From IMG/VR virus record IMGVR_UViG_3300043409_000116, positions 1 to 53,267 of that record: a stretch of DNA of 53,267 nt. One strand, written 5' to 3'. Below, in pieces: positions 20,980 to 22,892 of this stretch. The notes beneath the pieces are model-generated. The model searched no databases and was not told the origin of the DNA. It saw only the letters and a program-made list of their open reading frames with translations. Numbering within the stretch: the stretch's first letter is position 1; each line of letters starts with the position of its first letter. This stretch comes from a virus. Its lineage: Duplodnaviria; Caudoviricetes. Position numbers and translations under genes: made by a program.

Positions 20980-21020
20980 GCCGTTTTCTGATGCCCATTC
21001 GCAAGAGTGGGCATTGGAAA

Positions 21021-22892
21021 ATGATCTGGCTTGATTTTGAAACCCGCTCCCACTGTGACCTAAAGAGTCGCGGCGTCTACAACTACGCGCAAGACCTCAC
21101 GACCGAGGTGCTGTGTATGTCCTACGCCGTCGATGATGGTGAGGTGCAGACGTGGACGGCAGGCCCACTACCTGACTTCACCGGCCACCGCATCATGGCG
21201 CACAACGCTGCCTTTGAGCGGTTGATCTGCTGGTACGTCTTGCAGGTCAACATCCCGTTGGAGTCTTTCTACTGCACCGCCGCGCAGGCCCGTGCCAACT
21301 GCGCGCCAGGGTCGCTGGAGGACGTGGGCCGGTTCATGGGCGCGTCCATGAAGAAGGACCACCGGGGCGCTGCCCTCATCCGCAAGATGTGCGTCCCGCC
21401 CTTCCAAGAGTCGGCTGAGCTGACCGCCGAGATGATCCAGTATTGCGAACAAGACGTTCGCGCCATGAGGGCCATCAGCCAGGCCATGCGCCCCCTGTCC
21501 GAGGAGGAGCTGGCCGACTACCACGTCAACGAGCGCATCAACGACCGGGGCGTCCTGGTCGATGTGCCGCTCTGCCGCGCAGCGGTGTCCTACGCCGCCA
21601 CAGAGGCCGCTGAGATCGCCGAGATCGTCAAGGAGGTGTCCAAGGGTGAGCTGACCTCGGTGCGCTCGCCTAAGATGCGCCAGTGGGTCTGGGACCGTGT
21701 CGGCCCCGAGGCCCGTGCCCTGATGACCAAGGACGACAAGGTCAGCATCGACAAGACCGTGAGAGCCAACCTGCTTAACTGTGACGGAGTACCGCCAGAT
21801 GTCCAAGAAATCATCCAGTGCGCCGACGACCTCTGGGCCTCTTCCGTTGCTAAATTCGGACGCTTGGCGAGCCTTGCAGATCAAGAAGATGACCGAGTAC
21901 GAGGCGCGTTTGTCTTTGCTGGAGGTTCAGCTACAGGTCGGGCCTCAAGTTATGGGGCGCAAGTCCACAATTTCACTCGGGAGTGCGCTGAGAGTCCTCA
22001 AGATGTTAGGGATGCAATCGTCCGAGGCCACCAGATTGTTCCCAAGTACGGACGACGAATCACCGACGTACTGCGGGGGATGCTACGGCCCTCACTGATC
22101 CCGGCCAAGGGCCAGCAGTTCGTCGTTGCCGACTGGTCATCCATTGAGGCTAGGGTCAACCCTTGGTTGTCTGGTACGGGTCAGGCCAAGCTAGACGTGT
22201 TCACCTCGGGCCTCGACCCGTACATTGTCAACGCTGCTGCCACGTTCAACTGCGACTATGCGGCGGTTGTCCCCGCCCAGCGTCAGATCGGCAAGGTGCA
22301 GGAGTTGGCCTGCGGGTTCGCTGGTGGGATCGGCGCCTTCGCCGCGATGGGCCGGGTCTATCGGGTTGACCTGCCCGAGTCGGATGCGAGGCGCATGGTG
22401 GACGCTTGGCGCCGCGCCAATCAGTGGGCCGTGGGCTTCTGGCAAGCGCTTGAGCAGCAGTACACCAGGGCCATGCGGAACAAGGGGCAGGAGTTCACCG
22501 CCGGGCGGGTAACGTACCTGTTTGACGGGCGGCATCTCTGGTATTCTTTGCCTTCGGGCCGAGTGCTTTGCTACCCGTTTGCCCGGCTGGAGGACGACGG
22601 CATCAGCTATGCCAAGTCAGCTTGGAAGCCTGCCCAGGACGCCACCGAGTGGCCCCGCGCCCGGCTGTGGCGCGGTCTGGCTTGCGAGAACGTCACTCAG
22701 GCGGTTGCCAATGACCTGCTGCGCTACGCGCTGCGGCAGCTTGATGGTGTGGTGCTGCACGTCCACGACGAGATCGTCGTTGAGGGCGGTTCAGAAGATG
22801 AAGTGCGTAGGGTGATGACCACGCCGCCAGCTTGGGCCACTGGCCTGCCGTTGGCAGTTGGAATCAAATCGATGCCGCGATACGGCAAATAA
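21021..22892 (+). CDS. polA: DNA polymerase family A (APSE-like) with 3'-5' exonuclease
   Basis: LDFET, AHNAAFER, YC.QDV, ATGR, DWSSIEAR, RQIGK, VHDE motifs; start at ATG 21021. Confidence 0.92.
   Translation: MIWLDFETRSHCDLKSRGVYNYAQDLTTEVLCMSYAVDDGEVQTWTAGPLPDFTGHRIMAHNAAFERLICWYVLQVNIPLESFYCTAAQARANCAPGSLEDVGRFMGASMKKDHRGAALIRKMCVPPFQESAELTAEMIQYCEQDVRAMRAISQAMRPLSEEELADYHVNERINDRGVLVDVPLCRAAVSYAATEAAEIAEIVKEVSKGELTSVRSPKMRQWVWDRVGPEARALMTKDDKVSIDKTVRANLLNCDGVPPDVQEIIQCADDLWASSVAKFGRLASLADQEDDRVRGAFVFAGGSATGRASSYGAQVHNFTRECAESPQDVRDAIVRGHQIVPKYGRRITDVLRGMLRPSLIPAKGQQFVVADWSSIEARVNPWLSGTGQAKLDVFTSGLDPYIVNAAATFNCDYAAVVPAQRQIGKVQELACGFAGGIGAFAAMGRVYRVDLPESDARRMVDAWRRANQWAVGFWQALEQQYTRAMRNKGQEFTAGRVTYLFDGRHLWYSLPSGRVLCYPFARLEDDGISYAKSAWKPAQDATEWPRARLWRGLACENVTQAVANDLLRYALRQLDGVVLHVHDEIVVEGGSEDEVRRVMTTPPAWATGLPLAVGIKSMPRYGK
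21799..22098 (+). CDS. Candidate overprinted gene (+1 frame inside polA), 99 aa
   Basis: GGAG 9 nt upstream of ATG; polA codon usage shifts to A/T-ending codons over this interval. Confidence 0.45.
   Translation: MSKKSSSAPTTSGPLPLLNSDAWRALQIKKMTEYEARLSLLEVQLQVGPQVMGRKSTISLGSALRVLKMLGMQSSEATRLFPSTDDESPTYCGGCYGPH

Follow-up and report, generated by a model that had tools for sequence, protein, structure and literature searches.

Does an abrupt change of codon usage in the middle of a phage DNA polymerase gene betray a second gene nested in another reading frame, or does it mark a piece of DNA acquired from elsewhere? The question is raised by the tailed-phage record IMGVR_UViG_3300043409_000116 (Duplodnaviria; Caudoviricetes), a complete virus record of 53,267 bp that was analysed in full (hereafter, the window). 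Its family A DNA polymerase gene, polA (20991–22892, + strand), was recognised from a list of open reading frames (ORFs) and its 633-amino-acid translation, which matches Pfam PF00476 (DNA_pol_A; 40.6 bits, gathering cut-off 34.3, E = 2e-10) and PHROG 17 'DNA polymerase' (E = 1.7e-84). The translation contains VVADWSSIEARV and LHVHDEIVVE, both conserved across the aligned relatives, which we take to be catalytic motifs A and C of the family A polymerases. An earlier inspection of the letters (hereafter, the sequence-only reading) proposed that a +1-frame ORF of 99 codons plus TGA (21799–22098, + strand) is a working gene hidden in polA, and that dual coding holds the unusual codons in place. 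We consider it probable that the codon switch is instead a recombinant mosaic patch, that the ORF in the window most likely does not work as a gene, and that a longer ORF in the same frame of a sister clade probably does. A local codon anomaly together with an open alternative frame was thus insufficient to call a nested gene. In the window the anomaly probably reflects recombination within the stretch of polA that is best conserved, at a site occupied by an intein in relatives; its value is that it led to the overprinted-gene candidate of the sister clade and to the intein site of the polA family.

A divergent, low-GC3 patch in polA

Relatives of polA were drawn from IMG/VR in two scans. The first comprised 80 of 313 tblastn-confirmed loci and five genome contigs. 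L085, whose polA has a large insert, was not included in the codon alignment, which left 84 relatives. These include 36 members of the window's own clade (L001–L036; 86–91% amino-acid identity to the window, GC content at third codon positions (GC3) about 0.78), 42 members of a sister clade (L039–L080; 73–76% polA identity to the window, GC3 about 0.58), and six sequences outside both (L037, L038, and L081–L084). The second scan took 80 of 223 tblastn-confirmed IMG/VR hits and yielded 37 new loci and 43 duplicates. Among the INPHARED phages, one record matched (67.8% over 51% of the query) and was of no use.

The codon switch on which the sequence-only reading rested is readily seen. Using a 30-codon sliding interval, GC3 in polA declines from 0.87–1.00 upstream to 0.33–0.57 between 21771 and 22010, and recovers to 0.73–0.83 downstream. 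Of the window's 11 ORFs with high GC3, polA dips deepest (minimum 0.30; at least 0.47 in the others). Drops in GC3, third-position identity, and amino-acid identity delimit a segment of about 240 nt (21810–22050, + strand; edges approximate), in which 40 of 81 codons end in G or C, compared to 437 of 552 in the remainder of polA (Fisher P = 5.7e-8), and the summed A and T fraction at third positions (A3+T3) is 0.51 as against 0.21. This segment is also divergent. The window and its nearest relative, L009, agree at 37 of 81 third positions within the patch and at 438 of 552 elsewhere (P = 1.4e-9), with amino-acid identities of 69/81 and 509/552, respectively. Measured against the nearest relatives of the flanks, third-position identity falls from 0.8–1.0 to 0.15–0.5 between about 21816 and 22040, with recovery by about 22120. 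Trees built with FastTree, which were read without support values, place the window beside L009 when built from the flanks; when built from the patch, they put it among low-GC3 alleles, at the end of a long branch.

Two loci from JGI metagenome contigs share the patch. A peptide-pattern scan of these contigs with the +1 protein returned nine loci, and two of them (L090 and L091; +1 protein 90–91% identical to that of the window) carry the patch together with the flanks. They cannot be regarded as donors, because they are close kin of the window over the whole region (91–93% nucleotide identity over 1.1–4.2 kb). The corresponding scan of IMG/VR recovered four already known loci only, and no closer allele. 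Comparison of the window with L091 revealed blocks of 0.97 and of 0.57–0.8 third-position identity that alternate along the entire polA gene. The patch differs at 6 of 80 third positions and the rest of the gene at 87 of 553 (P = 0.06), other blocks being equally conserved; the block pattern is pervasive mosaicism, and the patch is under no special constraint. Searches for another signal that the patch might encode gave no RNA family anywhere in the window (Rfam), RNA folding no better than that of shuffled patch sequences (z = +1.57), and nothing relevant in the way of an internal promoter or terminator.

Phage genomes are generally mosaic, and the patch resembles known mosaic segments and co-conversion tracts in being short, abruptly bounded, foreign in composition, and highly divergent at synonymous positions relative to its flanks. 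The codon switch is best explained by recombination. A segment of about 240 nt (roughly 21810–22050) would have been transferred into polA from a lower-GC3 relative outside the sample, through homologous recombination or gene conversion, and would now sit where the gene is most conserved, before motif A and around ATGRASS. In the codon alignment of relatives, conservation of the polA protein is highest in the interval that the +1 ORF overlaps. Another mosaic junction in the family was seen in L038, whose polA is chimeric: the first ~400 nt (window-equivalent 20991–21400) are 56% identical to the window and the remainder 70–85%, and this remainder groups with high-GC3 alleles of the window's clade.

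A narrower form of the recombination reading, compatible with it, attributes the patch to an intein or other homing element, either as a co-conversion tract left after homing and intein loss or as recoding that escaped an endonuclease. The polA gene of L085 carries a 258-amino-acid in-frame insert (L085:1406–2179) at ATGRA/SS, which begins with C and ends with HHN, followed by S. Relatives of this insert (42–79% identity; 258–260 amino acids) occupy the same site in seven viral contigs (L180–L186), and all eight insert-bearing genes have the junctions ATGRA^C...HHN^SS, shifted by one residue in L184. The equivalent site in the window (21944–21945, + strand) lies within ~15 nt of the patch centre, a coincidence that is weak evidence because conserved motifs attract inteins and recombination junctions alike. 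The peak of synonymous divergence in the window's clade is nearby, at 21861–21975 (observed/expected 1.37–1.50), and from allele to allele the two Ser codons after the site alternate between AGY and TCN. Passages of PMC10643990 describe how flanking extein residues are co-converted when an intein invades, and the patch shares with such tracts its position at a site that an intein uses in relatives. Unlike in co-conversion systems, however, the scans found no donor, and neither the window nor its clade contains an intein or endonuclease among the sampled relatives. The insert-bearing genes all belong to other clades (63–73% amino-acid identity to the window), and the patch does not resemble their alleles, which match it at 10–20 of 45 third positions on each side of the site; no high-identity tract is shared between intein-bearing alleles and the window's clade. 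The L085 insert scores below the Pfam cut-offs for Intein_splicing (27.7; cut-off 35.8) and Hint_2 (20.6; cut-off 28.4), and a Pfam scan of this insert recognised no homing endonuclease domain. We regard an origin of the patch in intein homing as possible but improbable, and the intein link stays a lead. Intein-bearing alleles were also considered as sources of the high-GC3 alleles and were set aside for the same lack of a high-identity tract.

The +1 frame in the window and its close relatives

The elements that the sequence-only reading listed are in place. The +1 frame is stop-free from 21763 to a TGA at 22096–22098, which arises from the polA codons CTG/ATC; ATG 21799, formed by the codon pair GAT/G of Asp-Val, follows a GGAG (21786–21789) after a 9-nt spacer; a GTG start option exists at 21781 and a second ATG at 21889; and the product ends ...TYCGGCYGPH, including the C-terminal CGGC (all on the + strand). 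A second +1 stop (TAG, 22192–22194, + strand) precedes the part that encodes a hydrophobic hairpin in the sister clade.

The openness of this frame is within chance. When synonymous codons were permuted over the whole of polA (1000 shuffles; 1.35 stops on average), 14% of the shuffles left the interval open, and the longest +1 run of the gene, 111 codons, compares with a shuffled mean of 143. When permutation was confined to the interval, the probability of an open frame was 0.11 (2000 shuffles), and the +1 product showed no excess hydrophobicity. A +1 frame can be open by chance here because the amino acids of polA allow few +1 stops (~1.4–1.5 expected). Long alternative frames are ordinary in this gene, because even its antisense frame contains a stop-free run of 252 codons. 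Long alternative-frame ORFs reportedly arise without function in high-GC genes, as discussed for overlapping ORFs in Pseudomonas, and the antisense run and the 111-codon +1 run of polA are alike in staying within the expectation from composition.

Comparison with the close relatives gave no sign of constraint on the ORF. The sequence-only reading proposed to test relatives for a stop-free +1 frame and reduced synonymous variation; the frame is not consistently stop-free, and synonymous variation is not reduced. Internal +1 stops occur in 9 of the 36 close relatives, and 15 of 36 have GAC-GTN in place of GAT-GTN and hence lack the ATG; the ATG and open frame occur together in the other 21, and the terminal stop at 22096 is common to all 36. 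Synonymous variation, measured from pairwise differences among 21 thinned sequences of the window's clade, is normal to raised over the interval (observed/expected 1.0–1.5), with values of 1.06–1.50 across 21771–21981. The recent substitutions point the same way: L090 and L091 differ from the window at 10–11 of 318 nt, 9–10 of these at polA third positions, where 8–9 changes are synonymous and one is D>E, and each third-position change alters the +1 product, in many cases drastically (for example Q>P, L>P, S>C, and D>G). Because of the relatives' stops, the synonymous rates, the sharp patch edges, and the substitutions that alter the +1 product, dual coding does not explain the codon switch of the window. 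Scattered stops, normal synonymous rates, and a recombined patch were the very findings that the sequence-only reading had named as speaking against a nested gene; for the window they do so, although the sister clade leaves some substance to the notion of a +1 gene nested here. Clearly low synonymous differences in the window's clade were observed at 21501–21561 (observed/expected 0.46–0.54), outside the +1 ORF.

Nevertheless, a working 99-amino-acid gene whose dual coding preserves the unusual polA codons has some points in its favour. Besides the ATG preceded by GGAG, the frame and start region match those of the probably real nested ORF of the sister clade, and low GC3 goes together with an intact ORF: all 20 low-GC3 alleles of the clade (GC3 < 0.70) have the ATG and an open frame, as opposed to the 16 high-GC3 alleles (GC3 at least 0.70), in which the ATG occurs once and internal stops occur in nine. 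GC content by codon position is also gene-like in the +1 frame. The GGAG is not specific to the ORF, because relatives without the ATG retain the GGA-G codon pair as well, and the gene-like composition arises because polA position 3 is ORF position 2. Set against these points are the chance openness (P = 0.11–0.14), the stops and missing start codons of close relatives, the raised synonymous variation, and the accumulation of +1-altering substitutions. In addition, the +1 protein is only 48–51% identical to that of the next alleles, where polA is 85% identical, and it lacks the hydrophobic C-terminal part that is the sister clade's only segment with a clear composition constraint. No Pfam family was found for the +1 product, and its best PHROG match had E = 0.36. 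A working gene in the window is, on balance, unlikely, and its ORF is most likely not functional, judged from these comparisons of sequence.

The internal stops of the high-GC3 alleles (GC3 about 0.85) come from rare A-ending codons, at window-equivalent 21846, 21864, and 21873 in L006-type alleles; among 13 distinct high-GC3 alleles, the stop-making codons were GTA/G (8), TTA/G (3), and CTA/G (1).

A different reason to keep unusual codons would be that a rare-codon cluster slows polA translation at a domain boundary and aids co-translational folding. The A- and T-ending rare codons are indeed clustered just before motif A, as the A3+T3 contrast documents, but in 16 of the 36 close relatives this stretch has a GC3 of 0.70 or more, third positions vary freely, and the patch edges resemble recombination junctions, which makes this explanation very unlikely; slow codons conserved at fixed positions across clades were not seen. 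An assembly chimera of reads from two co-occurring strains, conceivable for a metagenome-derived record when many related strains co-occur in similar samples, is barely credible, because the separately assembled L090 and L091 carry the same patch in window-like flanks, and the patch is therefore real and no assembly artefact.

A long +1-frame ORF of the sister clade as a candidate gene

In the sister clade the same frame behaves differently. The +1 frame is open for about 222–253 codons in 62 of 62 sister-clade sequences, comprising the 42 members of the first scan (224–253 codons) and 20 more contigs (226–253 codons). In the 42 members, the open run extends from window-equivalent 21724/21778 to 22450–22510 and the ORF from 21784/21799 to 22474, covering the pre-motif-A, A, and B parts of polA. 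The TGA that closes the ORF at 22096 in all 36 close relatives of the window is present in none of these 42 members, which have CTC, CTT, or ATC where it arises. Inspection by eye showed an ATG 7–9 nt after a GGAG in all 62 start regions, with GGGA in L066 and GGAA in L166 instead.

In contrast to the window, the length of this frame exceeds expectation. Whole-gene shuffles of sister-clade polA gave 5.5–7.2 expected stops and P(open) <= 0.001 in 5 of 5 genes tested, and local shuffles gave P(open) of 0.0000–0.031 in 11 of 11. Stop avoidance is visible codon by codon. In 34 sequences thinned at 97%, all 363 Leu, Val, and Ile codons that precede an A inside the interval (102, 226, and 35, respectively) end in C or T, with frequent toggling between the two, whereas outside the interval such codons take the stop-making purine endings in 70%, 41%, and 21% of cases. 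Likewise, 5 of 5 strict risk sites are free of purines, compared to 6 of 41 control four-fold sites (P = 3.4e-4).

A second bias is seen near the 3' end. Across 22287–22449 (window-equivalent, + strand), the fraction of T at third positions (T3) in the sister clade is 0.38–0.51, as against 0.19–0.26 gene-wide (individual readings gave 0.38–0.46 against 0.21, and 0.40–0.42 against 0.20–0.23), and third positions are poor in A; as a consequence, the +1 frame reads two hydrophobic helices followed by GRRLR. Hydrophobic segments of this strength were rare in local shuffles (P <= 0.0055 in 9 of 11 tested; 0.018 and 0.044 in the other two). The bias is limited to the sister clade, T3 being 0.02–0.27 in every other clade. 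In the window it is 0.15 (0.16 for the gene), and the +1 frame there is not hydrophobic, reading SARCRSWPAGSLVGSAPSPRW... and SARCRSWPAG....

The sister-clade product is basic (isoelectric point (pI) 9.7–10.6) and has conserved islands such as LGMESALPM. An AlphaFold2 (AF2) prediction from a 50-sequence alignment had a mean predicted local distance difference test score (pLDDT) of 52.7, with helices at 25–54, 96–107, 166–198, and 204–224, the last two reaching block means of 61–85. The product is probably a largely disordered, basic protein with a C-terminal transmembrane hairpin. Three sister-clade +1 proteins matched no family in Pfam or PHROGs, the ESM Atlas gave no usable match, and a search of 5.8 billion predicted proteins (126–403 amino acids searched) returned three gene calls, all of the same nested frame.

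The limits of the long form were defined by outgroups. L160, the nearest (79–80% identity, whereas the 16 new sister-clade members that were compared share at least 85%), has the same GC3 as the sister clade (0.53), and its interval contains four stops at 22072, 22120, 22156, and 22399. Sixteen second-scan loci of other clades have +1 runs of 70–146 codons only. Unlike functionless ORFs of high-GC genes, the long frame of the sister clade exceeds the shuffled expectation at a GC3 of only 0.53–0.60.

The window's ORF has the same ATG and frame as the sister-clade ORF and is closed at 22096 and again at 22192. Judged by position, it is the homologue of the first ~45% of the sister-clade ORF, without the hydrophobic part. 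The long form is restricted to a single clade, so the sampled lineages make it more parsimonious to read the window as an ancestral, non-genic state than as a decayed gene; ancestral or decayed, its ORF is without support as a working gene. In the recombination reading it would be open by chance, the T-rich third positions needed for the hairpin being absent.

Stop avoidance and hydrophobic bias suggest that the sister-clade ORF is probably a real overprinted gene. On the comparative evidence we lean, by a little, towards the fuller proposal that an uncultured freshwater phage clade carries an unannotated gene of ~222–250 codons in the +1 frame, overprinted on the part of polA that codes for the polymerase domain. 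The product of this gene would be basic (pI about 10) and mostly disordered, and anchored by a transmembrane hairpin at its C-terminus; the long form of the gene would be restricted to this clade, with the window, L160, and all other sampled clades representing a shorter, unconstrained state.

Several observations weigh against the combined reading of recombinant patch, idle window ORF, and sister-clade gene. The pairing of low GC3 with an intact ORF in 20 of 20 window-clade alleles is one, and the persistence of low GC3 in a background of 0.78 could reflect continuing constraint. Stop-risk sites in the 105-codon interval of the window's clade are too few and too invariant for a test of stop avoidance like that applied to the sister clade. 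The patch tree keeps the window with the low-GC3 alleles of its own clade and not inside another clade. Peptide-pattern scans of IMG/VR and JGI metagenome contigs with the +1 protein found no patch donor, the matches being contigs that also share the flanks of the window or alleles 48–51% identical in the +1 frame. As for the sister clade, no homologue of the +1 ORF was found outside polA in Pfam, PHROGs, the ESM Atlas, or the 5.8 billion proteins, and the ORF as a whole shows no loss of synonymous variation (observed/expected 0.73–1.43), stronger dips lying outside it.

Known overprinted phage genes provide a frame for the candidate. Rz1 of phage lambda, a short lipoprotein gene embedded in the +1 frame of the lysis gene Rz, is the nearest analogue, sharing same-strand +1 nesting, a tailed double-stranded DNA (dsDNA) phage, and a membrane-associated product (predicted for the sister clade). 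Unlike Rz1, the sister-clade ORF spans 222–253 codons within the polymerase domain of polA and predicts a C-terminal two-helix hairpin, with no lipobox noticed; there is no sequence similarity between the two, as indicated by the lack of Pfam and PHROG matches, and the window's ORF is cut short. Other overprinted lysis genes are phiX174 E within D and the single-gene lysis genes within the replicase of single-stranded RNA (ssRNA) phages, whose products have ~35–90 amino acids, an N-terminal or single transmembrane segment, and experimentally demonstrated lytic activity. Like these, the sister-clade ORF would be a young, fast-evolving putative membrane-protein gene in an alternative frame of an essential gene, with weak amino-acid conservation except in the hydrophobic segment. 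It differs from them in being much longer, in placing its transmembrane hairpin at the C-terminus, and in being a candidate predicted from sequence, and the small-phage genes reside in tiny genomes. Titles and abstracts in the literature disclosed no nested gene in a phage DNA polymerase, although this coverage is incomplete and does not prove absence.

The comparison thus brought to light a long ORF within a tailed-phage DNA polymerase gene that is well supported as a candidate for same-strand overprinting, and the outgroups, the window included, show the frame before or without the long gene. The polA family may have captured gene birth by overprinting inside an essential replication gene, with the window as a pre-gene or truncated state. 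If confirmed, this would be a rare case in which the origin of an overprinted gene in a dsDNA phage can be dated, and would add an unannotated membrane protein to a widespread freshwater phage group.

An intermediate clade (L037 and L081; 77% identity) has a 150-codon +1 ORF (window-equivalent 21778–22228) with an LESALPMF island in common with the sister clade and without the hydrophobic tail; for L037, whole-gene shuffles gave P(open) = 0.002, and a gene caller once predicted a 143-amino-acid protein from this frame (P0004). Synonymous differences in the sister clade were reduced at window-equivalent 21261–21411 (observed/expected 0.59–0.75) and 22521–22641 (0.44–0.75), outside the +1 ORF. 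For such polA stretches of low synonymous difference, recent recombinational homogenisation or another embedded element is possible.

Neighbouring genes and the antisense frame

The genes around polA form a replication module of exonuclease, nucleotidyltransferase, DNA polymerase, and primase. An antisense ORF of 238 amino acids within polA (21168–21884, − strand) shows no sign of function, and a frame of this kind is to be expected in a gene of high GC3. The listed primase ORF (TTG at 22832) shares 61 nt with the end of polA (22832–22892), and its true start may lie further downstream.

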